NCBI RefSeq assembly: GCF_055900595.2
Contig: NZ_CM148325.1
DNA: 64,000 bases
Reading direction: 5' to 3' (one strand)
Part shown: positions 4,792-24,582 of the stretch, in pieces
How positions within the stretch are numbered: position 1 is the first letter of the stretch
Layout of the letters: each line of letters opens with the position of its first letter
The notes under the pieces: model-generated
What the model was told of the DNA's origin: nothing
What the model saw: the letters and a program-made list of their open reading frames with translations, nothing else
Database searches by the model: none
Position numbers and translations under genes: made by a program

Positions 4792-4903
4792 AGATATGAT
4801 CATCACCTTACTGGAGTAAATCAGAGGATATGAGAGAGGACCTGCGTCTGATGAAAACATGTCAGGCAGTGTTCTGGCTTGCTGCCCCCGCCTGGATTTG
4901 CCC

Positions 4904-5809
4904 CTATATTTCCAGACATCTGTTATCACTTAACCCATTACAGGCCCGCTGCCGCAGATATTCCCGTGGCGAGCGATAACCCAACGCACTATGCGGATGC
5001 CATTCGTTATAATGCTCGAACGCCTCTGCAAGGTTCTTTGCTGCCGTTAACCCGTCTGGTTTGGGTATGATACTTATGTAGTCACGCTTTATCGTTTTCA
5101 CGAAGCTCTCTGCTATGCCGTTACTCTCCGGACTCCGCACCGCCGTGTTTTTCGGTTCAAGCCCCAACATCCGGGCAAACTGCCGTGTTTCATTAGCCCG
5201 GTAGCATGAACCATTATCCGTCAGCCACTCTACTGGAGACGCCGGAAGCTCGTTGCCGAAGCGGCGTTCCACCGCTCCCAGCATGACGTCCTGTACTGTT
5301 TCACTGTTGAAGCCGCCCGTAGTGACCGCCCAGTGCAGTGCCTCACGGTCACAGCAGTCCAGCGCGAACGTGACCCGCAGTTTTTCTCCGTTATCACAGC
5401 GGAACTCGAACCCGTCAGAGCACCATCGCTGATTACTTTCTTTCACAGCCACTCTGCCGGTATGTGCCCGTTTCGATGGCGGTACAGCGGTTTTTCGCTC
5501 AAGCAACAGCGCATTCTGGCGCATGATCCGGTAAATACGTTTGGCATTGATCGCAGGCATACCATCAAGTTCTGTTTGTCTGCGAAGCAGCGCCCATACC
5601 CGACGATAACCATATGTGGGTAGCTCTCCGATAACATGGTGTATACGGCGAAGCACATCCGTATCATCCGTGTGACGGCTGCGGCGGCCGTCCTTCCAGT
5701 CATCGGCTCGTCTGAGAATGACGTGCAACTGCGCACGCGACACCCGGAGACAACGGCTGACGAAGCTTACTCCCCATCCCCGGGCAATAAGGGCGCGTGC
5801 GCTATCCAC
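4904..5809 (-). CDS. insD: IS2 InsD (OrfB) transposase
   Basis: Track ORF 301 aa [19 protein letters not shown]..., recalled IS2 OrfB. Confidence 0.9.
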
Positions 5810-6132
5810 TTTTTTGCTCGCCCATATTCAACGGCTTCTTTAAGGAGTTCATTTTCCATCGTTTTTTTGCCGAGCAGACGCTGGAGTTCTTTAATCTGCT
5901 TCATGGCGGCAGCAAGTTCAGAGGCAGGAACGACCTGTTCTCCGGCAGCCACAGCAGTAAGACTTCCCTCCTGGTATTGCTTACGCCAGAGAAATAACTG
6001 GCTGGCTGCCACACCATGTTGCCGGGCAACAAGGGAGACCGTCATTCCCGGTTCAAAGCTCTGCTGAACGATAGCGATCTTTTCCTGTGTAGTACGCCGT
6101 CTGCGTTTCTCCGGCCCTAAGACATCAATCAT
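5767..6132 (-). CDS. insC: IS2 InsC (OrfA)
   Basis: Track ORF 5767..6177 trimmed to Met of [18 protein letters not shown]. Confidence 0.9.
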
Positions 6133-6840
6133 CTGTTCTCCAATGACTAGTCTAAAAACTAGTATTAAGACTATCACTTATTTAAGTGATATTGGTTGTC
6201 TGGAGATTCAGGGGGCCAGTCTAACGGTTTACGTTACGCCCTTAGCTACCTGGCTAAACAGGATCAGAAAGAACACGGTATTATTCTGATGCGTAGCAGA
6301 CTTCCCGAAAAAAGTAACCGCGGCCGACCACGACACAACTGAATTACAGCTGTATTAGAATTAAGTTTCCGTAAGTTGTTGGGAGGTGCTTGAGTTAATA
6401 GGCAGCAGAGGGGGCGCTGTAATCAGTGTAGGGGACCCGAATTTCTGCTGTGGTGCTTCAGTGGTTCGGATACAGGTAACGAATATGGTTCATAAATCTG
6501 ACAGTGATGAATTAGCAGCACTGAGGGAAGACATCACTTGAAGCTTATGGGATTGAATGGCGACGTAAACCGCAGAGTCCTGTGCAGTGCGTTTCCGTAT
6601 TATCCACGGATGAGAAAGTTGCGTTATTTCGTCGGTTGTTTCGTGGGCGTAGTGATGTATGGGGCCTTCGATGGGAAAGTAAAACTAGCGGAAAATAAAA
6701 GTACTCGCCTGCCTACGGACCTTTTTACTCAGGGTATTTTTGTTTTCCATAACGTTGCGTATTAACATGAAGGAGAACGAGGGGGATTAGGTAATCTCTT
6801 TCCATGAAAATACGCAAACGTTCATCACCGAAGTGAAAAA

Positions 6841-9782: not shown

Positions 9783-10208
9783 TTGTTTGTGCGTGTTTTC
9801 TTCATACATGATTGGTAGTAAAGGTGATTCAGGCTATCAGTTTTTGCTGATGATCTTTTTATCTATAGAAAACATCAGCCAAGCTGGTTGGTTCAGTAAC
9901 GCTTTCATCTTTGAGCATTTTATAAAAAATTCTTGAATTGTTAAAATAGATTAAAGTCTGGTAACAGCAAAAGTTAAACGAGAAATCAAAAGGAGGTCCC
10001 AAATCTGAAAATGAAGCATCTGCGTGATGATGTTGCAGCGGGACGTCGTCGGCTGTATATCAGAGCAATCTGTCCATCCCTGCGTGAAGCCCCGTTACTT
10101 TATTCGTACCCCTTATAATGGGGTGTTAGCCAGCCAGACCCGGCATGATTACTGTGAACCGCCCCGGGAATCCTGGAGACTAAATTCCCTGAGAAAGAGG
10201 TAAACAGG

Positions 10209-10535
10209 ATGACTAAAAATACACGTTTTTCCCCCGAAGTCCGTCAACGGGCAGTTCGTATGGTTCTGGAAAGTCAGGACGAATATGACTCACAATGGGC
10301 GGCAATTTGTTCCATAGCTCCAAAGATTGGCTGTACGCCAGAGACTCTGCGTGTCTGGGTTCGCCAGCATGAGCGGGATACCGGGGGCGGTGATGGTGGG
10401 CTCACCACCGCTGAACGTCAGCGTCTGAAAGAGCTGGAACGTGAAAATCGTGAACTGCGCCGCAGTAACGATATCCTTCGCCAGGCTTCCGCTTATTTTG
10501 CGAAGGCGGAGTTCGACCGCCTCTGGAAAAAATAA
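10209..10535 (+). CDS. IS629 OrfA (108 aa)
   Basis: [23 protein letters not shown]... matches recalled IS629/IS1203 OrfA. Confidence 0.9.
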
Positions 10536-11335
10536 TGCCACTGCTGGATAAGCTGCGTGAGCAGTACGGGGTCGGACCGGTATGCAGTGAACAGCATATT
10601 GCCCCGTCAACGTATTACCATTGTCAGCAGCAGCGGCATCATCCTGATAAACGCAGTGCCCGTTGTCAGCGCGATGACTGGCTGAAGAGAGAGATACAGC
10701 GCGTATACGATGAAAATCATCAGGTGTACGGTGTGCGTAAAGTCTGGCGTCAGTTGTTACGGGAAGGAATCAGGGTGGCCAGATGTACAGTGGCGCGCCT
10801 CATGGCGGTTATGGGACTTGCCGGTGTTCTCCGGGGTAAAAAGGTCCGCACTACCGTCAGCCGGAAAACCGTTGCTGCAGGTGACCGCGTAAACCGTCAG
10901 TTCGTGGCAGAACGTCCTGACCAGCTGTGGGTGGCTGATTTTACTTACGTCAGCACATGGCAGGGCTTCGTCTATGTGGCGTTCATCATTGATGTGTTTG
11001 CCGGATACATCGTGGGGTGGTGGGTCTCATCGTCTATGGAAACGACATTCGTGCTGGATGCGCTGGAGCAGGCGTTGTGGGCCCGCCGTCCGTCCGGCAC
11101 CATCCATCACAGCGATAAAGGCTCTCAGTATGTGTCACTGGCCTATATGGAGCGATTAAAAGAAGCAAAACTGCTGGCATCAACAGGGAGTACAGGCGAC
11201 TCGTATGACAACGCGATGGCGGAGAGCATCAATGGTCTTTACAAAGCGGAGGTAATACACCGTAAGAGCTGGAAAAACCGTGCAGAAGTGGAACTGGCCA
11301 CACTCACGTGGGTGGACTGGTATAACAATCGATGA
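10535..11335 (+). CDS. IS629 OrfB transposase, shortened by a premature stop (266 aa versus about 296)
   Basis: Ends ...TWVDWYNNR then TGA; the expected C-terminus (LLGRLGHTPPAEAEKAYYASIGN) is readable just after the stop. Confidence 0.8.
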   Translation: MPLLDKLREQYGVGPVCSEQHIAPSTYYHCQQQRHHPDKRSARCQRDDWLKREIQRVYDENHQVYGVRKVWRQLLREGIRVARCTVARLMAVMGLAGVLRGKKVRTTVSRKTVAAGDRVNRQFVAERPDQLWVADFTYVSTWQGFVYVAFIIDVFAGYIVGWWVSSSMETTFVLDALEQALWARRPSGTIHHSDKGSQYVSLAYMERLKEAKLLASTGSTGDSYDNAMAESINGLYKAEVIHRKSWKNRAEVELATLTWVDWYNNR

Positions 11336-11985
11336 TTGCTGGGAAGGCTGGGCCATACTCCTCCGGCAGAAGCAGAAAAAGCTTATTATGCTTCCATCGG
11401 AAACAATGATCTGGCAGCCTGAGTTCACAGATAAAACACTCTCCAGGAAACCCGGGGAGGTTCAGTAATATCTGATCGTAACGGACGGACGCTGGAATTA
11501 ACCGATGACCGCAGCACAGAGAGTAGGGGATGCGGACGGTCAAAGATCGTGGAGTTGGATTTTATAAATCTGTCTCCAGTAGTAGATGAACTGAATACAA
11601 AGTTGCCAGAGAGTGGTCTGTCAGGCAGGGAATCAGAAACCGGATATTATTGACTGGTACATTGTGTCGGGCTGTGTACGTTCTCCCCGGACAGACAGTC
11701 TCAGTTCGTAGAATCTATAAATTACTGCTACTGATGCTGCCGGGGAAAGGTGTAACGAAAAAGCAGCCTCCGTTACCGGACAGCAAGAAGGCTGAATGAA
11801 GTTTATGGCGTTTGTATTTTGTAATGTCTGGCCATGCAGTAAATCCAGACAGGTTTTTATTATCATGTGAAGTATTCTGACATAAAATACTAAATTTCTA
11901 TTTTGTGATGAATGCTGCAAAATTGAATCTGCACTCTGATGTAACTTTTATCTGTTTCAGTGAAGCATGCCCACAGATTGAGTTA

Positions 11986-12219
11986 TTAAGTTGTGGAAGA
12001 ACAGTTCTGCCCCGCCTGCTTCTCTCCTTTCAGAAGCCAGTATGTTGCCATGCCTCGCCTTAATGGAGAGCGCTGAACCACACCTTCTTTTTCCAGTAAT
12101 AACAGGTAATAGCGTGCCTGATAATCCGTTACCGCCAGCGCCTCCGCAATTTCTGCGGTTTTCCCTCCATTATGCCTGTTCAGAAATTCCAGTATTTCAT
12201 TCTTCATATATTCACTCAT
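11986..12219 (-). CDS. papI: Pap fimbrial phase-variation regulator PapI (77 aa)
   Basis: [46 protein letters not shown]... matches recalled PapI; divergent from papB. Confidence 0.85.
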
Positions 12220-12399
12220 CTCACTGTAACAAAGTTTCTTCGAATAATAAAAATCATGCTCTCTGTTATCAACGGAAAGGTATTTTTATTCTCTGTGTTT
12301 GCTTTATTTGTGCAATTTAGTGAATTTGCTTTTTGTTGGCTTTATTTGATGTGTATCACATTTTGTGTGTTATTTTTCTGTGAAAAGAAAGTCCGTAAA

Positions 12400-12530
12400 A
12401 ATGCATTTAGACGATCTTTTATGCTGTAAATTCAATTCACCATGATGTTTTTATCTGAGTGTATTCTTGTTGTTAGAATTTTATTCTGGTTTAATTTTGT
12501 TTTGTGGGTTAAAAGATCGTTTAAATCAAT
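12400..12530. promoter_or_regulatory. pap phase-variation switch with two GATC sites 102 bp apart
   Basis: GATC at 12413-12416 (acgatctttta) and 12515-12518 (aaagatcgttta) in the papI-papB intergenic region; spacing matches the known Dam/Lrp switch. Confidence 0.75.
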
Positions 12531-12623
12531 ATTTACAACATAAAAAACTAAATTTAACTTATTGCGTGAAGAGTATTTCCGGGCCGGAAGCATATATCCA
12601 GGGGCCCGACAGAAGGGGGAAAC

Positions 12624-12937
12624 ATGGCGCATCATGAAGTCATCAGTCGGTCAGGAAATGCGTTTTTGCTGAATATACGCGAGAGCGTGCTGTTGCTCGG
12701 CTCTATGTCTGAAATGCATTTTTTTTACTGATAGGTATTTCTTCTATTCACAGTGACAGGGTCATTCTGGCTATGAAGGACTATCTGGTAGGTGGGCACT
12801 CCCGTAAGGAGGTCTGCGAGAAATACCAGATGAATAATGGGTATTTCAGTACAACACTGGGGAGACTTATACGGCTGAATGCTCTTGCAGCAAGGCTTGC
12901 ACCTTATTATACAGATGAGTCATCGGCATTTGACTAA
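12624..12937 (+). pseudogene. papB: papB, frameshifted in a poly-T tract
   Basis: Starts MAHHEVISRSGNAFLLNIRESVLL...SEMHFF then a stop after the T-run at 12719-12726; the downstream frame still encodes ...VILAMKDYLVGGHSRKEVCEKYQMNNGYFSTTLGRLIRLNALAARLAPYYTDESSAFD; length is 1 nt short of an intact frame. Confidence 0.8.
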
Positions 12938-13144
12938 ATTATGGCATTCCGGAGTTTCTGGAAGATAAAAAAAGAAGCCCTTGTCAGAAAGCAGACAGGT
13001 TATATCAGTATTCTGTCGATAAATAACCTGCCCTGAAAATACGAGAATATTATTTGTATTGATCTGGTTATTAAAGGTAATCGGGTCATTTTAAATTGCC
13101 AGATATCTCTGGTGTGTTCAGTAATGAAAAAGAGGTTGTTATTT

Positions 13145-13686
13145 ATGATTAAGTCGGTTATTGCCGGTGCGGTAGCTATGGCAGTGGTGTCTTTTGGTGT
13201 AAATGCTGCTCTAACTACTCCACAGGGGCAGGGTAGAGTAACCTTTAACGGAACTGTTGTTGATGCTCCATGCAGCATTTCTCAGAAATCAGCTGATCAG
13301 TCTATTGATTTTGGACAGCTTTCAAAAAGCTTCCTTCAAGCAGGAGGCGTATCCAAACCAATGAATTTAGATATTGAATTGGTTAATTGTGATATCACTT
13401 CATTTAAGGGGGGGGAGGAGTCTCGGCAGCAAAAAAAGGGACTGTGAAGCTGGCTTTTAGTGGTCCAAGGGTTTCTGGTCATAATGAGGAGTTAGATACC
13501 AGCGGGGGGACAGGTACTGCGATTGTAGTTCAGGCTGCAGGTAAAAACGTTTCTTTCGATGGCACAGAAGGTGATGCTAATACCCTGAAAGATGGTGATA
13601 ATGTGCTGCATTATACTGCGATTGTTAAGAAGTCGTCAGCCAATAATGCCCAAGTCACTGAGGGTGCTTTTTCTGCAGTCGCAACC
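13145..13686 (+). pseudogene. papA: papA major pilin, frameshifted and truncated near its 3' end by IS1
   Basis: Two track ORFs in different frames (13112..13447, 13444..13713) together read as PapA (MIKSVIAGAVAMAVVSFGVNAA...NVLHYTAIVKKSS...TEGAFSAVA); frame break near 13405-13440; coding sequence runs straight into the IS1 left end at 13687. Confidence 0.8.
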
Positions 13687-13741
13687 GGTGATGCTGCCAA
13701 CTTACTGATTTAGTGTATGATGGTGTTTTTGAGGTGCTCCA

Positions 13742-14017
13742 GTGGCTTCTGTTTCTATCAGCTGTCCCTCCTGTTCAGCTACTGACGGGGTGGTGCGTAA
13801 CGGCAAAAGCACCGCCGGACATCAGCGCTATCTCTGCTCTCACTGCCGTAAAACATGGCAACTGCAGTTCACTTACACCGCTTCTCAACCCGGTACGCAC
13901 CAGAAAATCATTGATATGGCCATGAATGGCGTTGGATGCCGGGCAACAGCCCGCATTATGGGCGTTGGCCTCAACACGATTTTACGTCACTTAAAAAACT
14001 CAGGCCGCAGTCGGTAA
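13742..14017 (+). CDS. insA: IS1 InsA
   Basis: 91 aa [30 protein letters not shown]... Confidence 0.9.
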
Positions 14018-14439
14018 CCTCGCGCATACAGCCGGGCAGTGACGTCATCGTCTGCGCGGAAATGGGCGAACAGTGGGGCTATGTCGGGGCTAAATCGCGC
14101 CAGCGCTGGCTGTTTTACGCGTATGACAGGCTCCGGAAGACGGTTGTTGCGCACGTATTCGGTGAACGCACGATGGCGACGCTGGGGCGTCTTATGAGCC
14201 TGCTGTCACCCTTTGACGTGGTGATATGGATGACGGATGGCTGGCCGCTGTATGAATCCCGCCTGAAGGGAAAGCTGCACGTAATCAGCAAGCGATATAC
14301 GCAGCGAATTGAGCGGCATAACCTGAATCTGAGGCAGCACCTGGCACGGCTGGGACGGAAGTCGCTGTCGTTCTCAAAATCGGTGGAGCTGCATGACAAA
14401 GTCATCGGGCATTATCTGAACATAAAACACTATCAATAA
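13936..14439 (+). CDS. insB: IS1 InsB (made as InsAB' by frameshift)
   Basis: 167-aa track ORF overlapping insA in the -1 frame. Confidence 0.9.
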
Positions 14440-14710
14440 GTTGGAGTCATTACCTACAACGTTTATCGACCTCACACGAACAACGATGGTTTACCGCCTT
14501 GCTTACATGAAGAAAAGTGGAAACAGGTTATTCCGGTGTCCTGATTTTGTGAACCACTACAATAATCCTTTTTCACAGACTTGTCAGCAGCCAGCATTTA
14601 TGTTCTTTTACCTGCGGGAATTTATCCGTCTGCCTGTCGGGACTACTCTGTCATACAGAAATCAGGTAGGAATAAATTGTAGTGGAAAGTCGATGTTTAC
14701 CGGATGACTG

Positions 14711-15262
14711 ATGCGCGCTTGTACACAGACAGTGTGTTTCAGTAATATGGAGAATAATGAAATGAATAACACAGACACATTAGAAAAAATAATCAGACAC
14801 CAAAAAAACAAAGACCCCGCATATCCCTTTCGGGAACATTTGTTGATGCAGCTCTGTATTCGCACAAATAAAAGAATGCAGGATAATATATCTGAATTTC
14901 TGGGGGTGTATGGAATAAATCACTCAGCATATATGGTTCTCACCACATTATTCGCAGCGGAGAACCATTGTCTGTCACCTTCAGAGATAAGCCAGAAACT
15001 TCAGTTTACCAGAACTAATATTACCCGCATTACAGATTTTTTAGAAAAAGCCGGATATGTAAAAAGGACGGATAGCAGGGAGGATCGCCGTGCTAAAAAA
15101 ATCAGTCTGACATCTGAAGGTATGTTTTTTATTCAGAGGCTCACTCTTGCACAAAGCATGTATCTGAAAGAAATCTGGGATTATCTGACCCATGATGAAC
15201 AGGAACTGTTTGAAGTCATTAATAAAAAGTTACTGGCACATTTTTCTGATGCCAGCTCATAA
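14711..15262 (+). CDS. papX: MarR-family regulator PapX/SfaX-like (183 aa by track; start may be the internal MENNEMNN)
   Basis: MarR-type wHTH; sequence ...TDTLEKIIRHQKNKDPAYPFREHLLMQLCIRTNKR... matches recalled PapX; sits where the 3' end of a pap operon would be. Confidence 0.75.
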   Translation: MRACTQTVCFSNMENNEMNNTDTLEKIIRHQKNKDPAYPFREHLLMQLCIRTNKRMQDNISEFLGVYGINHSAYMVLTTLFAAENHCLSPSEISQKLQFTRTNITRITDFLEKAGYVKRTDSREDRRAKKISLTSEGMFFIQRLTLAQSMYLKEIWDYLTHDEQELFEVINKKLLAHFSDASS

Positions 15263-15728
15263 AGTGCGAAATATCTGAGGATGCTGGATAGCTTCAGGCA
15301 AGAGAATAATGATTCTTGCAGATGTGTTTTTCCGGATACAAAAACAAAAGTAAAAAATTGCAGCGCCAGGCCACCTTTCAAAGCAGGGAGGCCTGTACCG
15401 CGTCGAAAATTTCAGCCAGTTAATGTAATTGTCTGAACCAGGCACTTCGCCCGGGCAGGAGAAGGAGCGTGGTTGCGGTCATCCTGTATACTGAAGTCGT
15501 TATGAAGGAATAATACAAATAATTGCCCGTTTTCTCTGTACGATAGAGGCAGGTGTGTATGATTGCATTACTATGTTTTTGTGATATAAAAAACTAAATG
15601 GTGAGATATGCATTTTAAAATATAACAAAAATCACCATGAAATAAGAATAATTATCCACGGAGAACATAAACTGCAGACTGTTACAATGCATGCTGTTCA
15701 TCTTGACAATGTCGGTAATGACTCCAAC

Positions 15729-16232
15729 TTATTGATAGTGTTTTATGTTCAGATAATGCCCGATGACTTTGTCATGCAGCTCCACCGATTTTGAGAACGA
15801 CAGCGACTTCCGTCCCAGCCGTGCCAGGTGCTGCCTCAGATTCAGGTTATGCCGCTCAATTCGCTGCGTATATCGCTTGCTGATTACGTGCAGCTTTCCC
15901 TTCAGGCGGGATTCATACAGCGGCCAGCCATCCGTCATCCATATCACCACGTCAAAGGGTGACAGCAGGCTCATAAGACGCCCCAGCGTCGCCATCGTGC
16001 GTTCACCGAATACGTGCGCAACAACCGTCTTCCGGAGCCTGTCATACGCGTAAAACAGCCAGCGCTGGCGCGATTTAGCCCCGACATAGCCCCACTGTTC
16101 GCCCATTTCCGCGCAGACGATGACGTCACTGCCCGGCTGTATGCGCGAGGTTACCGACTGCGGCCTGAGTTTTTTAAGTGACGTAAAATCGTGTTGAGGC
16201 CAACGCCCATAATGCGGGCTGTTGCCCGGCAT
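15729..16232 (-). CDS. insB: IS1 InsB (copy B)
   Basis: Identical to copy A InsB. Confidence 0.9.
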
Positions 16233-16426
16233 CCAACGCCATTCATGGCCATATCAATGATTTTCTGGTGCGTACCGGGTTGAGAAGCGGTGTAAGTGAA
16301 CTGCAGTTGCCATGTTTTACGGCAGTGAGAGCAGAGATAGCGCTGATGTCCGGCGGTGCTTTTGCCGTTACGCACCACCCCGTCAGTAGCTGAACAGGAG
16401 GGACAGCTGATAGAAACAGAAGCCAC
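16151..16426 (-). CDS. insA: IS1 InsA (copy B)
   Basis: Identical to copy A InsA. Confidence 0.9.
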
Positions 16427-16955
16427 TGGAGCACCTCAAAAACACCATCATACACTAAATCAGTAAGTTGGCAGCATCACCCAATCTGCTGACAGACGAA
16501 GATAATGAACCCGTTATGGTTTTTAACGGAGAGAGGAATGTACTGGCAGACAGTCTGAAACCACAGCCTCTGATTCTTCCGGTCAAGGGAAAATAAGCGT
16601 AATGTTCATCACCAGATTATGTACGATGAGTTTTCCACTGTTTATAGCAATTATCTTGCTAATAACCAGACAGGAGTAACCAGACCAACCGAAAACACCG
16701 GGAAGGTGATTACCCGCTGGCAGAGGAAATCCGGTTTTTTTTGATGTCAGCCATAACGTGTTTGACAATAAAGCATCATGAAAGGGTGTTAATGAGTCCA
16801 TGGGATAATTCATAAAAATAATTTACTGTGTTATCCTTTTCAAAAGAAATATTCAGAAGATAACCCCTGGCTGACAACCAGGGGAAGGGGGCATTAACAG
16901 TGTTATTATTGGTGAATAAATTATTACTTGTGTGCAGGATACACTAATGCAATAT

Positions 16956-18029
16956 CTACTGATACTGTATGCCAGTATGTTTCATGCCTGCCGCTGAAAA
17001 CGGCAATATCCAGGGCCAGATATATTCACCATTCATATTTCTGCATTTCTGTACAATTTTCTCAGAAAGCGTCTCATCAATTCTTTCACGCAACTTCTCC
17101 TGCTGTCTTAAAATACTTTCGCATATTTCGAAATCATCTTCCTGCATCAGCATTTCGGCGCATTTAATGATTTCTGCCCGTTCATGCAGCACAGAGGAAT
17201 GATTATAGAGCCAGTTTACAAACAGCAATGCTTCCGGATATTGCCCCCATAACGGGTGGTATGTGGCATAATAATCTTCGGCAGTATCCGGACCGCCTGA
17301 AAAGTTATGCCATACAGCAAGTGGAAATGGATGCAGATTTCCGCACAGTATTTCTGCGATGTAAGTATTTGCCGCAAAGCCGCGACGAAATGCAGTTGCA
17401 GCTTTTACCAGTTCCCCATTAAGAAAATGCAGAAGGCCGAGTTCATACCAGTAAGGTGAAAATTCATCTGCATGTTCCTGCAGTATATGGCGTGCCTGTT
17501 CATGAGCGCCAGTGCGTAACAGTTCCGGTCCCAGTAGCCAGCGTGCACCATGATTATCTTCGGGATTGTAATCCAGTATTTTTTCAATGAGCATGATGGC
17601 ATCCTGATGACGCTGTAAATGTGCATTTGCCAGGATTGCCGCATAGAGGGCACGAAGAAAAGGTCGGTTGTCAGGATGTATCCAGATGATTCTGCCACTG
17701 AAACCTTCAGGGATAAGACGATTGCCAATTGCCAGCCCTTTAAGGGCAGCATTCAGCGCCTTACGCGGGGCATTCTGCTCCAGAAATACGTATGCCAAGT
17801 GAGCGTGTACATCAATAAAGTCATTCTCCTGTCGGGCAAGGCGCCTGAGTTTGTTGATGTAACTTGTTTCGCTGATTTCATCCGCATCGTATGCATCAAT
17901 CAGTTCTTCAAACTCATCCAGCAACGAGCCAAACCAGGTTTCCGGAAATATGAAACAGCCCTGGTTATCGTTCACTTCAAAGCGTAATTTGCCAGTCATA
18001 TTCTGAACCTGTAAAAAAGGATGGACCAT
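16956..18029 (-). CDS. Hypothetical protein with TPR-like helical repeats (357 aa by track; alternative start at 17999)
   Basis: Long ORF with repeated amphipathic helix pairs (...ALNAALKGLAIGNRL..., ...LRALYAAILANAHLQRHQDAIMLIEKILDYNPED...); I do not recognise the family. Confidence 0.6.
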   Translation of the reverse strand: MVHPFLQVQNMTGKLRFEVNDNQGCFIFPETWFGSLLDEFEELIDAYDADEISETSYINKLRRLARQENDFIDVHAHLAYVFLEQNAPRKALNAALKGLAIGNRLIPEGFSGRIIWIHPDNRPFLRALYAAILANAHLQRHQDAIMLIEKILDYNPEDNHGARWLLGPELLRTGAHEQARHILQEHADEFSPYWYELGLLHFLNGELVKAATAFRRGFAANTYIAEILCGNLHPFPLAVWHNFSGGPDTAEDYYATYHPLWGQYPEALLFVNWLYNHSSVLHERAEIIKCAEMLMQEDDFEICESILRQQEKLRERIDETLSEKIVQKCRNMNGEYIWPWILPFSAAGMKHTGIQYQ

Positions 18030-18254
18030 AACCTGCAGGCTATAAAAATTGTGATGCCTGGCATCGGTGTCCTTTTATTGTCCGGGATTAACGTTGCCCA
18101 TGATAATACAGTGAATTCTGTTCTGTGGTAAGACGTTGAGTTATTGAATGAGAACCTCAGCCTGGCTGATGGTTCCGCCGGCATAAAAAAGAAATTGATT
18201 GAGGCGGGTGCTCTTCCCCTTAAGAGGAAGAGCATGTGTGTAAATGGCGTTCAG

Positions 18255-19520
18255 TCACCTTTTCAGTGGATTGTTAACTTTTGCATATTCAAACGGACTG
18301 ATACACTCCTCCCTGTTTGCATCCAGAAAATCTGCCCACCATTGCAGCATAAGCCGACGTTCTTCCAGATGTTCTGCTTTATGAATATACGCGGCACGTA
18401 CTCCGTTGCGCTCCTGATGACTCATCTGACGTTCAACCGCATCTCTTGACCATAAGCCGGATTCAATCAATGCACTGCACGCCATCGCCCGGAATCCATG
18501 GCCACAGACTTCCTTGGTTGTGTCATACCCCATCACTCTGAGGGCCTTATTTACGGTATTTTCACTGATTGGTTTACGTGGGTCGTGTGCTCCCGTAAAG
18601 ATCAGACCATTTTCACCTGCCCATGTCTGAAGTTCTGCCAGTATGGCTACAGCCTGTTGGCTGAGTGGCACAAGATGTGGTGTTCGCATCTTGGAGCCCC
18701 GGTATGAAAATTTTACGCCTGGCAGAGGTTCGCGTTCGGCTGGAATAGTCCACATGGCATTGTCAATATCAATTTCAGACCAGCGGGCATATCTGAGTTC
18801 ACTGGAACGAATAAAAACCAGTAAATTCAGCATAACTGCCAGTCGGGTGACAGGCTGGCCTTTATAACCGTCAATACGCGACAGAAGTTCAGGCAGGCGT
18901 GAAAGATCCAGAGCAGGGCGATGCTGGCGTTTTACCGTGGTCAATGCACCAGCCATATCCAGAGCCGGGTTATATCTGATGATGCCAGACTGTACGGCAT
19001 AACGCATTACAGCAGATATTCTTTGCTGCAGACGACTGGCGATTTCATAAATTTGTTTAACTTCTGCAGCACGAACAGGGATAAGCAGATCCGGGGTACT
19101 GAGTGTTGTGATATCCCGGTTGCCGATAAAGGGGAAAACGTGAGTCTCGAGGCTTTTGAGTACTTTATCGCTGTGTGATTGTGCCCATTGTTTATTACTG
19201 GCATGCCAGCGTCGTGCAATATGTTCAAAAGAGAGCTGTAAATCAGGGACTACTTTTTTAGCTCTTTTCTGTTCGCAAGGGTCAACCCCCTCCGAAATCA
19301 GTTTTCGGGCCTCATCCCGTTTTGTACGAGCTTCGGAGAGAGAAACTTCCGGATACACACCAAGTGCCAGGGTTTTCTCCTTACCCAGAATACGATAACG
19401 GAGACGCCAGTAACGGGAACCATTAGGATGTACCAGCAGGAACATGCCAGCCCCGTCAGTGAGTTTATAAGCCTTGTCAGTGGGCTTTGCAGCCCGGATT
19501 TTTGCGTCAGTCAGTGCCAT
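18255..19520 (-). CDS. P4-family tyrosine integrase (421 aa)
   Basis: N-terminus MALTDAKIRAAKPTDKAYKLTDGAGMFLLVHPNGSRYWRLRYRILGKEK typical of P4/CP4-type integrases; C-terminal catalytic region present. Confidence 0.9.
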   Translation of the reverse strand: MALTDAKIRAAKPTDKAYKLTDGAGMFLLVHPNGSRYWRLRYRILGKEKTLALGVYPEVSLSEARTKRDEARKLISEGVDPCEQKRAKKVVPDLQLSFEHIARRWHASNKQWAQSHSDKVLKSLETHVFPFIGNRDITTLSTPDLLIPVRAAEVKQIYEIASRLQQRISAVMRYAVQSGIIRYNPALDMAGALTTVKRQHRPALDLSRLPELLSRIDGYKGQPVTRLAVMLNLLVFIRSSELRYARWSEIDIDNAMWTIPAEREPLPGVKFSYRGSKMRTPHLVPLSQQAVAILAELQTWAGENGLIFTGAHDPRKPISENTVNKALRVMGYDTTKEVCGHGFRAMACSALIESGLWSRDAVERQMSHQERNGVRAAYIHKAEHLEERRLMLQWWADFLDANREECISPFEYAKVNNPLKR

Positions 19521-19680
19521 AGTTCAGCCTTCTGAATGCGTTAAAGAGGGTACAAATTCTGTCGAACTGGGGTATACCCGCAATTATACCCACACAATGG
19601 GGTTGATGTGGGGGGAATCTGGTTGAGTTCGGTAGAATTGATTTGGAGGCAGAACGCTTAAATTGTGGCGTTCTGAAACG

Positions 19681-19708
19681 AAAAACGGACCTCCGTGGAG
19701 GTCCGTTT
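19681..19708. terminator. Strong hairpin terminator between the tRNA-Phe remnant and the integrase
   Basis: aaaaacggacctcc gtgg aggtccgttt: 11-12 bp perfect stem with T-runs on both sides. Confidence 0.6.
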
Positions 19709-19717
19709 ATATGAATT

Positions 19718-19736
19718 TGGTGCCCGGACTCGGAAT
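19718..19736 (-). repeat. 19-bp copy of the tRNA-Phe 3' end (attachment-site core repeat); no full tRNA
   Basis: Minus strand reads ATTCCGAGTCCGGGCACCA, identical to the 3' end of tRNA-Phe (pheV/pheU, recalled); upstream sequence does not continue as tRNA. Confidence 0.6.
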
Positions 19737-19983
19737 GAAACTGGTTATATAACCAATTGTTTTGTATCGACTGTTTTGTCTTTGTTCTTTTTGGGGCCAC
19801 CAATGAGGCCCCCATGTGCAATTCGAATTCTTTTGACGCTATAATCCCTCTTTTTTGTGCTTTGTTGTAATCATTTTGTCTGGTTCGATATGCTGAATCG
19901 CGGAATCGAAGTAACAACAAAATACAGAGATTTATAAAATACCTGGCTACCTGTGTTAGGGAGCGTTAACGCACAGATTTTGT

Positions 19984-20310
19984 TTATGGCTGCCAGAAAT
20001 GATCTGATGGTTTGTCGTCTGGCTCTGCAAGTACCCTGTTGATATCCCGGGAACCATGAACGATACGTTCGATACGAACTTCAGTATCCAGTACCCTGAA
20101 CAGCAGAAGGTAACGACCATACGAACAACCTCTGATCCCTGCCCCTAACTCGGGTCTTTCTCTGTAGAGTACTGGCGATTCGGCTATCAACAGACATTGT
20201 TGGTAAAGCTCTTCGGTAAAACTGATTGCACGGACAGGATTATCCTGAGCGATCCAGTCACCTATAGCTTCAAGATCGTGTTCTGCTAATGGTGAAACAG
20301 TCAGTTTCAT
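19984..20310 (-). CDS. ParE/RelE-superfamily toxin (108 aa)
   Basis: Small basic protein immediately downstream of, and overlapping by 4 bp, a ParD-like antitoxin gene; ParE-like sequence by recall. Confidence 0.75.
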   Translation of the reverse strand: MKLTVSPLAEHDLEAIGDWIAQDNPVRAISFTEELYQQCLLIAESPVLYRERPELGAGIRGCSYGRYLLLFRVLDTEVRIERIVHGSRDINRVLAEPDDKPSDHFWQP

Positions 20311-20570
20311 ATTGGCTGTTCACCTTCTGCCATCTTTTTGTATTTGTGCGTCAGTCGCCCGAATACCTCTTCAGCACTTTTACTTTCACCGCTGTTGATG
20401 CCTGCGGTAACGGCGCTCTGGAGTGATTCAAGCTTTATCTGCTGTTCCCGTTCTTCCAGAGCACGAAGTCCGGCACGAATGACTTCACTTGTATTGTTAT
20501 ACCGACCACTTTCTATTTGTTCGCGGATAAACGTTTCAAAGTAAGGACTGAGGGATACACTGGTAGGCAT
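20307..20570 (-). CDS. ParD-family antitoxin (87 aa, RHH fold)
   Basis: MPTSVSLSPYFETFIREQIESGRYNNTSEVIRAGLRALEEREQQ is a typical ParD N-terminus. Confidence 0.75.
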   Translation of the reverse strand: MPTSVSLSPYFETFIREQIESGRYNNTSEVIRAGLRALEEREQQIKLESLQSAVTAGINSGESKSAEEVFGRLTHKYKKMAEGEQPI

Positions 20571-20641
20571 GGTGATTTTCTCGCCGATTGATTACTATCA
20601 ATTAATAATAGTTAATATTCGCGAATTGTAAAATACCTCTT

Positions 20642-21508
20642 TTATGCCTTGCGGCTTTTGTTCACTGTGCTTGCCAGGGCTTCCGGGTAGTGTCTGACAA
20701 TAATATCATTAAGCCTGTCAACCAGTTCTGGTTTCCTGAACGTGATGTGCGCGGAGCCCTTCTTAAAGTATCTGATGCTGAACATCTCATCTTCATAGTC
20801 CTCTTTACCCTGAACAGACCGGATGTGCTCATTCAGATGAATGGTGATGTTTTCCCGGTTGTCGGGGATCGGTTTGCCGCTGAACAGATACAGCATTCTT
20901 TCCAGGTCGGCAAGTCGATCTGCCTGTTGCCCGGTGATAAGATGAAACCCCCACCGGTCCCACCTCACCAGGTTGTTGACGATAATTTTACTGCCAAATT
21001 TACAGGGTGAATTGTTTTCGTAATTCCAGCTCAGTCCCCTGAAAACATTGATCACCCCACGCTCAAACACTTCATCTTTGTTCTGGTGCAGTTGTTCAAA
21101 TGTGCTCAGAATGTTCGCTTCACTGATTTCCGGAAAATTATCGTATTCCAGTGACCGGTACCATGTATCACGGGCCTGCGCATCCATTAATGACAGCATC
21201 CCGGAACGTTGCATCAGGTCACGCCAGATTTCGCGATCGAGATTGCGGGTGATGGCTTTCATTGCTGTTTCCGGTTTATCCATGAGCCAGCATCCGCAGC
21301 GAAAATCCTGTTTCATCGCCCAGTCCCGTGCGCTTTTACCACCAATGCTTTTTGTCAGTACTGAGATTTCAGTCAGTTGCCGGATAAGCGTTTCGGTTTG
21401 TTGCAGTGCTGCATTCCGTACCGTCACAACGTGTCGGATACTGGTGGAGCAGATAACGTCCGTATTCCCGGTGACCACTTCCGGATGGGAGATTGTGATG
21501 TTTGACAT
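20642..21508 (-). CDS. Hypothetical protein, 288 aa (possibly DUF4942-type, common at the ends of CP4-like islands)
   Basis: Track ORF with coding-like composition; family assignment from memory only. Confidence 0.6.
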   Translation of the reverse strand: MSNITISHPEVVTGNTDVICSTSIRHVVTVRNAALQQTETLIRQLTEISVLTKSIGGKSARDWAMKQDFRCGCWLMDKPETAMKAITRNLDREIWRDLMQRSGMLSLMDAQARDTWYRSLEYDNFPEISEANILSTFEQLHQNKDEVFERGVINVFRGLSWNYENNSPCKFGSKIIVNNLVRWDRWGFHLITGQQADRLADLERMLYLFSGKPIPDNRENITIHLNEHIRSVQGKEDYEDEMFSIRYFKKGSAHITFRKPELVDRLNDIIVRHYPEALASTVNKSRKA

Positions 21509-21592
21509 TATCGGTTTCCCTTTTGGTTTATAAACGAAAACGCCAGCCGTATTCAGGCTGGCGTCAGTGGAATGAAGTCTGGTGAGTAAGGC

Positions 21593-21790
21593 TCACCGGT
21601 TCTGTTGCAGAAGCTGCAGTTGGCGCAGGGTATGGATATCCTCCCTCGCCTGTTCAATGCAGGGCAGCAGTGCTGCCGAATCCGTTTTATCCTCATCGTT
21701 GTCAAAGATAATTCCCGATTCGCAGTCGATATTGTCCTGCAGCCACGCAATCAGAATATCCAGTGCTGTTTCCGTGGTTAATGATTTCAT
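21593..21790 (-). CDS. YeeW-like small protein
   Basis: MKSLTTETALDILIAWLQDNIDCESGIIFDNDEDK... resembles YeeW/YpjJ-type proteins that follow cbtA-type toxin genes (recall). Confidence 0.55.
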   Translation of the reverse strand: MKSLTTETALDILIAWLQDNIDCESGIIFDNDEDKTDSAALLPCIEQAREDIHTLRQLQLLQQNR

Positions 21791-21801
21791 GTTGTTCCTG
21801 G

Positions 21802-22290
21802 TTACCAGTTGAAAGTGGGTAAACCCGGCAGGCATTCAGCGCTGGCATCCAGATGAATGAGACTGACGCCATAACGTCGGGTAAGTGTGACAACCAGACA
21901 ACGGAACGTTTTTGACAGGCCCAGGCGCTTAAGCCGCAGAACCGGGTATGACCACGCATCGGTACGTAACAGATAGCCGCTACCTGTGAAATGAATCCAT
22001 TCTGATTCACCAACGTCACTGGTCTGATGCGACAGCGAGTACAGCCAGGCGTTATCCTTTTCCGTGATATGTGCGGTACTGCAGCGTATGCCGGCAAGGG
22101 TTGCAAACGGTGGTAGTGTGCAGGTTGACTGTTGGTCGGATTCCTCCACCACGCGGAGTGAATAACCGTTTTCAGCGACCTTGTTAATCAGTTCAGTGAG
22201 ATTAACACCATCGACGTCAACGACAATTTGCCCCATGTTCAGTGCCTGCACATTAATTCTGTCGGCTTCCAGCATCAGGGAAAGTTTCAT
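21802..22290 (-). CDS. Hypothetical protein, 162 aa, start overlapping the cbtA-like stop
   Basis: Track ORF; 4-bp overlap with the upstream toxin gene suggests translational coupling; family not recognised. Confidence 0.45.
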
Positions 22291-22661
22291 CGTTTCTCCG
22301 GATGCTTACCCAGGGTAATGTTATTTACCGTTCTGTAATTGTCGCGGGTCATCAGGCCGGTCGCCCGGCGAGCCCGGAGGATATCAATACTGTTTATTAA
22401 CTGAGAGCGGGGACAAGTGCTGAATCCCGGCTGGTCGGTACGCACCAGCGCGTATTTTTCCACGAGAAAATTCACCGCATCACACAGTGAAATGCCAGCT
22501 TCAATATGCTGCTCAATCACACGTTCATCGGCGAACGGTGTGTCATTCAGTGTAAGGCCGTAATGCTGGCCCAGTAGTCGGGAGAGCAGAGTCTGCCAGA
22601 TGGTGACGGGAGACGGGCAGCTCGATGCCTCCCGTACGTGTGTATCGGGTAATGTTTTCAT
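22287..22661 (-). CDS. CbtA/YeeV/YkfI/YpjF-family type IV toxin (124 aa)
   Basis: ...[45 protein letters not shown]...[10 protein letters not shown] matches the recalled family. Confidence 0.85.
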
Positions 22662-22750
22662 ACTGAAGGTTTTCCTGATATGCAGAGATGAAAAATGGAA
22701 AAGTGGCGTGGTGAAAGCACCAGGCCGGAGCAGAAGGTTATTCCGGTGGT

Positions 22751-23119
22751 TTACTTTTTCGTTTCGGGCGTCGGATAAACAGCCAGATAAACGTAACCAC
22801 AGGAGCCGAGGGTGTCGGCTTCGCAGGTCAGCCCTTTCGCATACAGCGTGACGGTATGCTGATGTCGGGGATTCAGTTCACCGCTGGTGAGCATGAGTTC
22901 CAGTTGTTTCATCAGCAGCGGAAAGGCCTGGTCCAGATGGTATGCATCTGCGTCGCTGAAGCGGCCTCTGATACCGGCGCGGTCGGCAAGGTAATGCAGG
23001 CGGTTACCCTCCTGCACCAGACGGGCGCCAAAACAGGGCCTCACTGTGCAGGGAAGCCCCCACCAGGGGCGGTCGTGATTGTCGTCGGGATGAGTTATCC
23101 CGGAGAGTGTGTCTGACAC
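22751..23119 (-). CDS. CbeA/YeeU/YfjZ-family antitoxin (122 aa)
   Basis: [80 protein letters not shown] matches recalled YeeU. Confidence 0.85.
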
Positions 23120-23159
23120 GATAAAATCCTCTCTGAAAAGTGGTTAAGAATGGTTTAAC

Positions 23160-23801
23160 GATGACAGGTCAGCCGGTGCGCTGACCGGTTTCGGTGAAGA
23201 TGTATGCATTGATGAGAATGGCCTCATCCACAGCGGCGTCTGAGGTCATCTGGTCGTACTCGTTTTCCAGTTGACGGTACAGCCAGAAGGCCAGGTCGCG
23301 CAGGGCTTCGCTGACAGCGGCTTCCGCATCGGCTGTCATAGCCTGACCAGTCGGACTGTTCCGGGTAACAGTGATAACGGATGGCAGTAACGTCCCCGGT
23401 GGTGGATTTCAGCCTGCAGTTGCCAGAAGTTACGTTTCTGCACCGCCTGCAGGGCATCCGCGATACGATGAAGCTCACGGTTCTGCGGGGCATACTCCCG
23501 GACTCTCCTGGTTGTTGCTGACTGCCAGTGCCAGCGTCCTTCAAAACAGGCTCCGTCCCTGGCTGCAGAATCCGCTGAACCAGATGCACGGCTCTTCCAT
23601 AAACCTGCCGTTGCTGAGACGGATAACACGCTGGCAGAGGTCAATTCCGAAAATGCCACAGACCTCCCTGACGTCCTCATACACGTTTTCATACCAGTTG
23701 CTGTCAGCATGATGCTGACGGTACCCGTCGCGGGCTTTTTCCCGTGCCGGGCAGGAAAGTTCATCCAGCGTATACACTGTGATGGTGATAATTCTGCTCA
23801 T
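23160..23801 (-). pseudogene. Frameshifted gene between yeeT-like and cbeA-like genes (product unknown)
   Basis: Three overlapping track ORFs in three frames (23541..23801, 23336..23764, 23224..23589) plus a readable C-terminal peptide (...AVSEALRDLAFWLYRQLENEYDQMTSDAAVDEAILINAY...) point to one roughly 210-aa gene broken by frameshifts. Confidence 0.45.
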
Positions 23802-23815
23802 CAGAATGCCCTGAC

Positions 23816-24037
23816 TCAGTTCAGGGTGACGCTCATCAGCCGGACATACGGGCCAAAACTGTCCTTACGACGTTCTGCAAACACAGCCAGCACACCGGGA
23901 ATATCCTGCACTTCACGACCGGTATACGTTTCAGTGCTGCCGTGCCAGCGGTATTTGCCGGTACAGAACGGAAAAAGACGGGATGCAGGATGCTGTTGGT
24001 GAATACGCATGGCTTCACCACGGGTGATGATTTTCAT
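23816..24037 (-). CDS. YeeT-like protein, 73 aa (DUF-type, CP4-44 family)
   Basis: MKIITRGEAMRIHQQHP.SRLFPFCTGKYRWHGS.E.YTGREVQDIPGVLAVFAERRKDSFGPYVRLMSVTLN matches recalled YeeT. Confidence 0.8.
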   Translation of the reverse strand: MKIITRGEAMRIHQQHPASRLFPFCTGKYRWHGSTETYTGREVQDIPGVLAVFAERRKDSFGPYVRLMSVTLN

Positions 24038-24105
24038 AATGGGATACCTCTGAAGACAGAAGATAAAAGTGAAAACAGGTGTGATGTGGTTGTGACGGTG
24101 ACGGG

Positions 24106-24582
24106 TTAAAGCAGACCGTGTTCGGCAAAGGAGAATACCTGGCTGCCACCGACTATCAGATGGTCCGGCACCCGGATATCCACCAGGGCCAGCGCCTGAA
24201 CCAGACGTTCCGTAATAAGCCGGTCTGCCTTACTGGGAGTGACTTCACCGGACGGGTGGTTGTGTGCCAGTATCACGGCGGCGGCATTGTGGTACAGGGC
24301 GCGTTTAATCACTTCCCGGGGATGGACTTCCGTGCGGTTGATGGTGCCGGTGAAGAGGGTTTCACCGGCAATCAGCTGATTCTGGTTGTTCAGATACAGC
24401 ACCCGGAACTCTTCACGCTCCAGTCCCGCCATGTTCAGAATCAGCCATTCCCGTGCCGCATGCGTGGAGGTGAAGGCCACGCCGGGTTCATGAAGATGAC
24501 GGTCCAGGGTTTTCAGGGCCCGCTGAATGAGGCTGCGCTCACCGGGTGTCATCTCTCCGGGCAGAAAGGAAAGTTGTTGCAT
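24106..24582 (-). CDS. RadC-like JAB-domain protein (YeeS/YfjY/YkfG family)
   Basis: Track ORF trimmed to MQQLSFLPGEM...; HNHPSG JAMM motif present. Confidence 0.85.
   Translation of the reverse strand: MQQLSFLPGEMTPGERSLIQRALKTLDRHLHEPGVAFTSTHAAREWLILNMAGLEREEFRVLYLNNQNQLIAGETLFTGTINRTEVHPREVIKRALYHNAAAVILAHNHPSGEVTPSKADRLITERLVQALALVDIRVPDHLIVGGSQVFSFAEHGLL

Follow-up and report, generated by a model that had tools for sequence, protein, structure and literature searches.

The region from 11986 to 16481 of a 64000-nucleotide stretch of DNA (contig NZ_CM148325.1 of the NCBI RefSeq assembly GCF_055900595.2; the whole stretch is termed the window) can be identified, at a probability of about 0.88, as a degenerate remnant of a P-fimbrial (pap) operon, situated on a pheV-type genomic island near the end that carries the integrase. 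The figure is a joint one, covering an origin in a pap operon, two deletions each bordered by a copy of the insertion sequence (IS) IS1, a papX gene that works from its own promoter, and a Dam/Lrp switch that is probably idle. No fimbria can be produced from this locus.

How general is the remnant? From 11800 to 16700 the window matches, at 100% identity, E. coli EC958 and JJ1886 (O25b:H4, sequence type (ST) 131), clone D i2/i14 and many other strains. At least 80% of this stretch is present in one piece in 560 of 5,426 complete E. coli genomes, many of them at 100% identity. The pap locus of Nissle 1917 likewise shows 100% identity, and its genes, frameshifts and IS1 junctions are those of the window. 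In most E. coli ST131 the allele is fixed; Nissle 1917 and clone D have it too. In the RefSeq annotation papI is followed by a 54-amino-acid PapB/FocB family protein, a frameshifted papA pseudogene, IS1A, papX and a second IS1A, and after the pap remnant come a tyrosine integrase and tRNA-Phe (pheV). The locus has also been noted in print, as the ‘remnants of the pap locus’ (PMC11537424), as ‘papA, papB, papI and papX with nearby mobile elements’ (PMC8281228), and as papIBA without papH to papF in 65% of 4,071 ST131 assemblies (bioRxiv 10.1101/2020.05.07.081380). It is therefore already annotated and described, and its nature as a pap remnant is known. In the literature searched we did not find the exact break points and the IS3 tail described below, the occurrence of the papX segment in either orientation, a further reduced form of the locus carried by 276 genomes, the variant −10 box of the papX promoter, or the conflict between the papB frameshift and a published idea of PapB cross-talk. 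These are minor refinements and constitute no new kind of system.

The papI gene (11986-12219, minus strand) is an intact open reading frame (ORF) of 77 amino acids, encoding a winged-helix co-regulator of the PapI/FaeA type (RefSeq WP_000006213.1). Its product matches Pfam FaeA (1.3e-30), and by comparison of translations differs at five residues from the PapI of CFT073 and at three from that of strain R13, whose intact pap operon is 99.1% identical to the window over papB-papA and serves as the reference for the lesions. The PapI co-regulator of the switch is thus predicted to be intact. Between papI and papB lies a regulatory region of 404 bp (12220-12623, assigned to neither strand) that contains just two GATC sequences, GATC-distal at 12413-12416 and GATC-proximal at 12515-12518. 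These are 102 bp apart, and both occur as ACGATC within a 27-nt inverted repeat, with arms at 12395-12421 and 12510-12536. The region differs from the R13 operon by nine substitutions, with none in the GATC boxes and none in 12506-12688, a stretch that contains the pBA promoter. From the sequence and what is known of pap, we take the divergent pI and pBA promoters to lie within 12220-12623, and TTTGA-N6-TCACA at 12345-12360 is presumably a CAP-like site.

The papB gene (12624-12937, plus strand) is a pseudogene. A single nucleotide has been deleted from a run of T, which reads T8 at 12719-12726 against T9 in intact alleles, and an N-terminal ORF of 35 amino acids (12624-12731) ends in a stop codon. 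The C-terminal ORF of 54 amino acids (12773-12937) is the PapB/FocB family protein of RefSeq (WP_001305388.1); it would hold the helix-turn-helix part, and no ribosome-binding site is obvious ahead of it. When the T is restored the gene encodes a PapB of 104 amino acids that matches Pfam PapB (1.4e-35), with P25L as its sole substitution compared with R13. The papA gene (13145-13686, plus strand), also called a frameshifted pseudogene by RefSeq, has suffered twice. Compared with R13 one T is missing after 13412, so that GGGGGTGGG has become a run of eight G and the frame is shifted, and the 3′ end has been cut by IS1, which joins papA between 13686 and 13687, 21 bp short of the native stop. 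Position 13686 corresponds to 15129 of the R13 locus, where papA ends at 15150. Thus papA is nearly full length yet frameshifted, and is without its last six codons and stop codon. An operon for P fimbriae needs an intact major subunit gene, papA, and an intact tip adhesin gene, papG; here papA is frameshifted and cut and papG is absent.

The T-run was surveyed with a 67-nt probe that combined the allele-specific bases of the window with T9, and 656 genomes were matched. Exact T9 was found in three of the 656, and the other matches listed read T8. Two assemblies of Nissle 1917 disagree at this point, CP007799 having T9 and CP022686 T8, while FCI17 and FCI48 also have T9, their annotation giving PapB at full length, for which reversion or homopolymer error are both possible.

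What do these lesions mean for the switch? A working Dam/Lrp switch of this kind includes an intact PapB, which here is truncated after 35 codons. Studies by the Uhlin and Low laboratories established PapB as an activator of both papI and pBA, which completes the positive feedback loop by which cells stay ON. Because this protein, needed for the positive feedback of the ON state, has been lost, the switch is probably idle or locked OFF unless PapB is supplied in trans, even though its cis elements and papI are intact. Some ST131 sublineages have acquired a second pap-type operon (bioRxiv 10.1101/2020.05.07.081380).

The two IS1 copies frame the right-hand part of the remnant. Copy 1 (13687-14454, plus strand) is of the IS1A type, with intact insA and insB′, and is placed with its left inverted repeat (IRL) at the truncated papA and its right inverted repeat (IRR) towards papX. 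Copy 2 (15714-16481, minus strand) is inverted, so that its IRR also points towards papX. Both have the 768-bp length, terminal inverted repeats and insA/insB′ frames of IS1; they are identical, with no mismatch over 768 bp, and RefSeq annotates an IS1A family transposase with a programmed frameshift. The 9-bp flanks are GTCGCAACC and TACAACGTT for copy 1, and GACAATGTC and CAATCTGCT for copy 2. A 9-bp target duplication was sought in all pairings of these flanks (direct, swapped, reverse-complement and composite) and none matched, as expected if each copy borders a deletion. A partial IS1 of 366 bp, 99.2% identical to the two copies, lies at 61921-62286.

Comparison with related islands places both deletions. 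By tblastn the 64-kb window contains nothing homologous to PapH, C, D, J, K, E, F or G; in particular the usher gene papC and the chaperone gene papD of a chaperone-usher operon have no match there when the CFT073 PapC and PapD are used as queries. The window is collinear with PAI-pheV of CFT073 from the IS elements left of papI to the 5′ part of papA, and again from 16482 through two hypothetical genes to int. In strain 582 the order is papC′-D-J-K-E-F-G, a full IS3-family element, papX, about 11 kb of island DNA, and a phosphoethanolamine-transferase (ept) pseudogene. Positions 14455-15713 of the window are contiguous in that strain at 99.7% identity (locus positions 12001-13259). The first part of this segment (14455-14561, plus strand) is the terminal 107 bp of an element of the IS3 family, with CA as its final letters at 14561. 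It matches an IS3-type remnant in CFT073 at 96% and IS3 or ISKpn37-like transposase genes on plasmids, and in strain 582 it is continuous with the full element beside papG. We had considered 14455-14561 as the 3′ end of papG, and reject this assignment on the strength of those three matches. There follow native papG-papX intergenic DNA (14562-14710, plus strand), papX itself, and 451 bp of native downstream DNA (15263-15713, plus strand) that ends at the IS1 junction and continues in strain 582. Position 15713 of the window corresponds to 13259 of the strain 582 locus and position 16482 to 24251, which is 10,991 bp further on. Beyond copy 2 lies the 3′ end of the ept pseudogene (16482-16600, plus strand; assigned by blastn to CFT073 and its annotation, the end being approximate), and then island-end DNA with hypothetical genes and int. 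The CFT073 interval matching this second deletion is much longer and includes hlyCABD. For the gene lost just to the right of the papX segment (strain 582 locus positions 13301-14017) there was no NCBIfam match.

By these comparisons the ancestor had the order papI-papBAHCDJKEFG, IS3-family element, papX, about 11 kb of island DNA, ept pseudogene and int. One deletion, at IS1 copy 1, took away the final 21 bp of papA, the genes papH to papG, and the IS3 element save for 107 bp; the other, at copy 2, took the DNA from 451 bp downstream of papX to the 3′ end of ept, about 11 kb as judged from strain 582. In addition papB and papA each lost one T. Each deletion presumably occurred by intramolecular transposition of IS1 (adjacent deletion) or by recombination between IS1 copies; either route would explain the missing target duplications.

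Much of this structure had been anticipated in an earlier reading of the sequence (the original prediction), which described a decayed pap locus, and every feature that it listed was found where it had been placed. It had papI and the two GATC sites 102 bp apart as intact, papB as frameshifted in the T-run, papA as frameshifted and then cut by IS1, papH to papG as absent, and the MarR-type papX as surviving between identical inverted IS1 copies that have no target duplication, and all of these stand. The alignment to an intact operon that it proposed has now been made with R13, CFT073 and strain 582, placing both the lesions and the deletion end points. Its proposal of IS1-mediated deletion is supported, both copies sitting where collinearity with those three strains breaks. 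It overlooked that the DNA to the right of copy 1 is an IS3 tail rather than pap DNA, that the right-hand IS1 marks another deletion, independent of the first and about 11 kb long, and that papX retains a mapped proximal promoter. Its ‘intact epigenetic switch’ holds for the cis elements and papI, but not for the activator of the operon, PapB, which is frameshifted. Thus the description and the reading as deletions were right, but it omitted that the locus was already annotated and described.

The papX gene (14711-15262, plus strand) encodes an intact MarR-family regulator, annotated at 183 amino acids. The product has the MarR winged-helix domain (Pfam MarR, 2.1e-11; an MprA-like NCBIfam match lies under the curated cut-off), and at 176 of 183 residues (96%) it is identical to the characterised PapX of CFT073, leaving seven differences. 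By rapid amplification of cDNA ends (5′ RACE) in CFT073, Luterbach and Mobley found that papX transcription starts at an A, that 144 bp separate this A from the ATG, and that the −35 and −10 boxes have a spacer of 19 bp (PMC6246914). The three in-frame ATG codons of papX were each compared with this distance, with A as the first transcribed base and with the length of the spacer. The ATG at 14762 alone fits them all, and would give a PapX of 166 amino acids. On the window this maps the −35 box TTGTCA to 14581-14586 and the −10 box to 14606-14611, with an inferred start at about 14619. So placed, the proximal promoter of papX lies wholly in retained native DNA. The −10 box is TTTTAC in the window, Nissle 1917 and Z0117EC0062; CFT073, R13 and strain 582 have TTTTAT. 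The substitution of C for T falls at the last and most conserved position.

That the retained regulator works follows from transposon-directed insertion-site sequencing (TraDIS) of EC958, where papX insertion mutants are enriched among hypermotile cells with a log fold change (logFC) of 8.76 (PMC5425062; restated in PMC6246914). Since papX mutants are hypermotile and the EC958 locus is identical, the papX retained here is active as a motility repressor. In our model papX would be transcribed from its own proximal sigma-70 promoter, and PapX would repress flhDC and lower motility. The original prediction had papX kept as a motility regulator, which the EC958 data support, and the motility assay of papX loss that it called for has in effect already been published in that TraDIS study.

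The papX segment is found in more than one arrangement. The two 768-bp inverted IS1 copies would allow the 1.26-kb segment between them to flip by homologous recombination. A synthetic junction of 1,368 nt, in which the truncated papA and IS1 are followed by the downstream flank of papX in reverse complement, was used as a probe, and gave a full-length match in 40 complete genomes; the 15 listed are 100% identical. Thus 560 genomes have the segment as in the window and 40 have it flipped. In agreement with this, the annotation of SaT040 shows papX on the opposite strand between two IS1 copies. By collinearity with CFT073, the orientation in the window is read as the ancestral one. Among genomes with a single island EC958 has the orientation of the window and SaT040 the flipped one, and among those with a tandem island JNEC-KY173 has the former and MS15046 and 401656 the latter. 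The presence of all four combinations suggests that inversion took place more than once, or that lineages have recombined with one another. In Ecol_732 a third IS1 lies within the papX segment, the match being in two pieces over 2,035 bp, and this is a possible natural knockout of papX.

A second reduced form occurs in 276 genomes, such as MS6198 and Z0117EC0062, and is without papIBA (10380-14130 of the comparison locus L005). It runs from pheV and int through the truncated ept, an IS1, 792 bp of the IS3 element followed by papX, and a second IS1. The exact junctions of the window, 15713 with IRR and IRL with 16482, are both present, on different IS1 copies. The outer 280 bp of the second IS1 are those of another isoform; this hybrid IS1 of the MS6198-type genomes is a recombination scar. 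The event at the right-hand IS1 is probably ancestral to both reduced forms.

Could the lesions be a sequencing or assembly artefact, or a collapsed copy of an intact operon? Both frameshifts lie within homopolymers or create them (T8 and G8), and the two Nissle 1917 assemblies are discordant in the T-run. Yet in about 650 complete genomes with this papB allele exact T9 is seen only three times, the whole 4.9 kb is reproduced in 560 genomes, many with 100% identity, the pseudogenes have been called independently by RefSeq, and the loss of papH to papF has been published for ST131. By comparison of these sequences an artefact is effectively refuted already; indeed the original prediction had itself named homopolymer assembly errors as a threat, and the survey of the T-run together with identical independent assemblies rules against them. 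The same T-run might alternatively act as a contingency locus, in which slippage between T8 and T9 would reversibly toggle PapB, and with it the switch and the cross-talk with type 1 fimbriae. The repaired papB would be intact apart from P25L, and three assemblies with T9 on this very allele are annotated with full-length PapB. But these are only three of the 656 genomes; for one of them a second assembly of that strain disagrees, and the remaining two may reflect homopolymer error. Runs of eight or nine T are also short for high-frequency slippage; we consider such toggling very unlikely. It is just as doubtful that IS1-papX-IS1 is a composite transposon that imported papX, making the gene no leftover of the local operon. 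Two intact, identical, inverted IS1 copies with their IRL ends outward around a 1.26-kb cargo have the appearance of such a unit, and the same IS1-flanked cargo lies beside different outer DNA in the MS6198-type genomes. However, there is no 9-bp duplication around the unit, with outer flanks of GTCGCAACC and CAATCTGCT; papX has its native position and orientation with respect both to papA and to ept, int and pheV, as in CFT073 and strain 582; and strain 582 has both the IS3 tail and the downstream DNA in unbroken continuity with native flanks. The shared junctions and hybrid IS1 of the MS6198-type genomes are better explained by inversion and recombination between IS1 copies.

A further question is whether papX is still linked to the phase-variable promoter. 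Read-through from pBA across the truncated papB and papA, IS1 and the IS3 tail could make papX phase variable and motility heterogeneous. The pBA promoter, the truncated papB and papA, the insA/insB′ direction of IS1 copy 1 and papX are all co-oriented; the papA-papH intergenic region that normally follows papA has been deleted; papX expression in CFT073 tracks that of pap (PMC6246914); and the papX −10 box is presumably weakened. Against this, with PapB frameshifted the ON state should seldom be reached or kept, and IS1 insertions are, in general, strongly polar. Moreover the promoter mapped for papX itself has been retained, the gene would be read antisense in the 40 genomes with the inverted segment, and it persists without any papIBA in the 276 genomes of the second form. 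We therefore regard read-through of this kind as unlikely. The original prediction had suggested that a locus devoid of fimbriae keeps both a phase-variable promoter and a motility regulator. The motility regulator has indeed been kept, but the coupling of pBA to papX that this implied was overstated, given the mapped promoter of papX and the 40 genomes in which the gene is flipped against pBA. There is also a slim chance that the bracketed papX is a recombinational invertible element, whose orientation would tune the level of PapX and hence motility. If so, the window orientation would allow sense read-through from pBA and IS1, and the flipped form would give antisense transcription. Selection on motility would then explain why papX, alone among the pap genes, has survived in both of the independently reduced forms (in about 600 and in 276 complete genomes), and why all four combinations of island type and orientation exist.

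Several points weigh against our preferred account, that of a pap remnant with two IS1-bordered deletions, a self-sufficient papX and an idle switch. The idleness of the switch is probable from the known role of PapB, and the literature searched holds no direct transcript or methylation data for the remnant; a search by terms of the supplements to the single-molecule real-time (SMRT) methylome paper on EC958 gave no match for either GATC position. The mechanism of the deletions and the order of events are not readable from the sequence. The TTTTAC box should weaken the papX promoter, and part of papX transcription may come from an sfaX-type start 44 bp downstream or from read-through out of IS1. 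Lastly, the TraDIS hit EC958_3259 was assigned to papX through the single place that papX occupies in records of the ST131 type.

This locus accounts for the lack of P fimbriae from the island in most ST131 strains and in Nissle 1917, which nonetheless keep the PapX brake on flagella. Surveys of gene presence count papA, papB and papI as ‘present’ in ST131, when papA and papB are frameshifted in this allele. It has been suggested that, with papIBA retained, PapB can damp type 1 fimbriae (bioRxiv 10.1101/2020.05.07.081380). As we read papB this does not hold for the allele as it stands; the gene is frameshifted, and therefore the idea requires full-length PapB from elsewhere. Anyone comparing the structure of this island between genomes, or assembling it from short reads, should allow for both orientations of papX.

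Other features of the window lie outside the remnant. Pap-related RNA was sought with Rfam, and the only matches above the gathering score were three that fall outside the remnant: the AS-pc02 antisense RNA (11657-11835, minus strand) about 150 bp past the papI stop, the Hfq-binding RNA STnc490 (9870-9992, plus strand), and the ALIL frameshift pseudoknot (10490-10606, plus strand) in an IS3-family element left of papI. The small RNA PapR is encoded outside the pap island (PMC4546395). Past the integrase only the last 23 nt of tRNA-Phe remain (19717-19739), and no tRNA gene was found in the 64-kb window. From 19740 to 64000 there is a second island, with genes for DUF4942, toxin-antitoxin systems of the CbtA/YeeU type and RadC, and an autotransporter of 1,371 amino acids at 53616-57731. 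The islands are thus in tandem, and the best complete-genome match across their junction reaches only 95%. At 4900-6225 a 1.3-kb insertion that is not in EC958 encodes the IS2 TnpB (NCBIfam, 2.7e-212).

Compared with known systems, the closest relative is the pap remnant on GI-pheV of EC958, JJ1886 and Nissle 1917, whose locus is identical over 4.9 kb. The window differs in carrying the additional IS2, outside the remnant, and in having the second island after int where the others have the tRNA-Phe gene. Two published accounts (bioRxiv 10.1101/2020.05.07.081380 and PMC8281228) treat papB of this remnant as functional or as a full hit, whereas that of the window is frameshifted. The intact operon of CFT073 PAI-pheV is 97.6% identical to the window over papI, the switch, papB and the 5′ part of papA, and the island backbone on both sides is shared with CFT073 and R13. 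In contrast to those intact operons the window has no papH to papG, its papB and papA are frameshifted, and an IS3 tail precedes papX; compared with CFT073 it is also without the papX-ept interval that carries hly there.

In its regulator the remnant resembles the papX/sfaX/focX family, in which a MarR-type protein encoded at the distal end of a pap-type operon represses flhDC, and papX of the window is of the same kind. Such X genes form part of the operon transcript and also have a proximal promoter of their own (PMC6246914), and stand-alone papX genes are known on PAI-536-selC and PAI-S88-pheU (PMC7545054). Unlike other orphan X genes, papX of the window is bracketed by inverted IS1 copies and can flip, and has TTTTAC as its −10 box. 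The rearrangements themselves have clear precedents. As in known adjacent deletions mediated by IS1, there is one IS1 at each deletion joint and no target duplication, and as in known inversions between inverted IS copies the intervening segment occurs in both orientations. Set beside these the mechanism is not unusual; the events at this locus are inferred by comparison.

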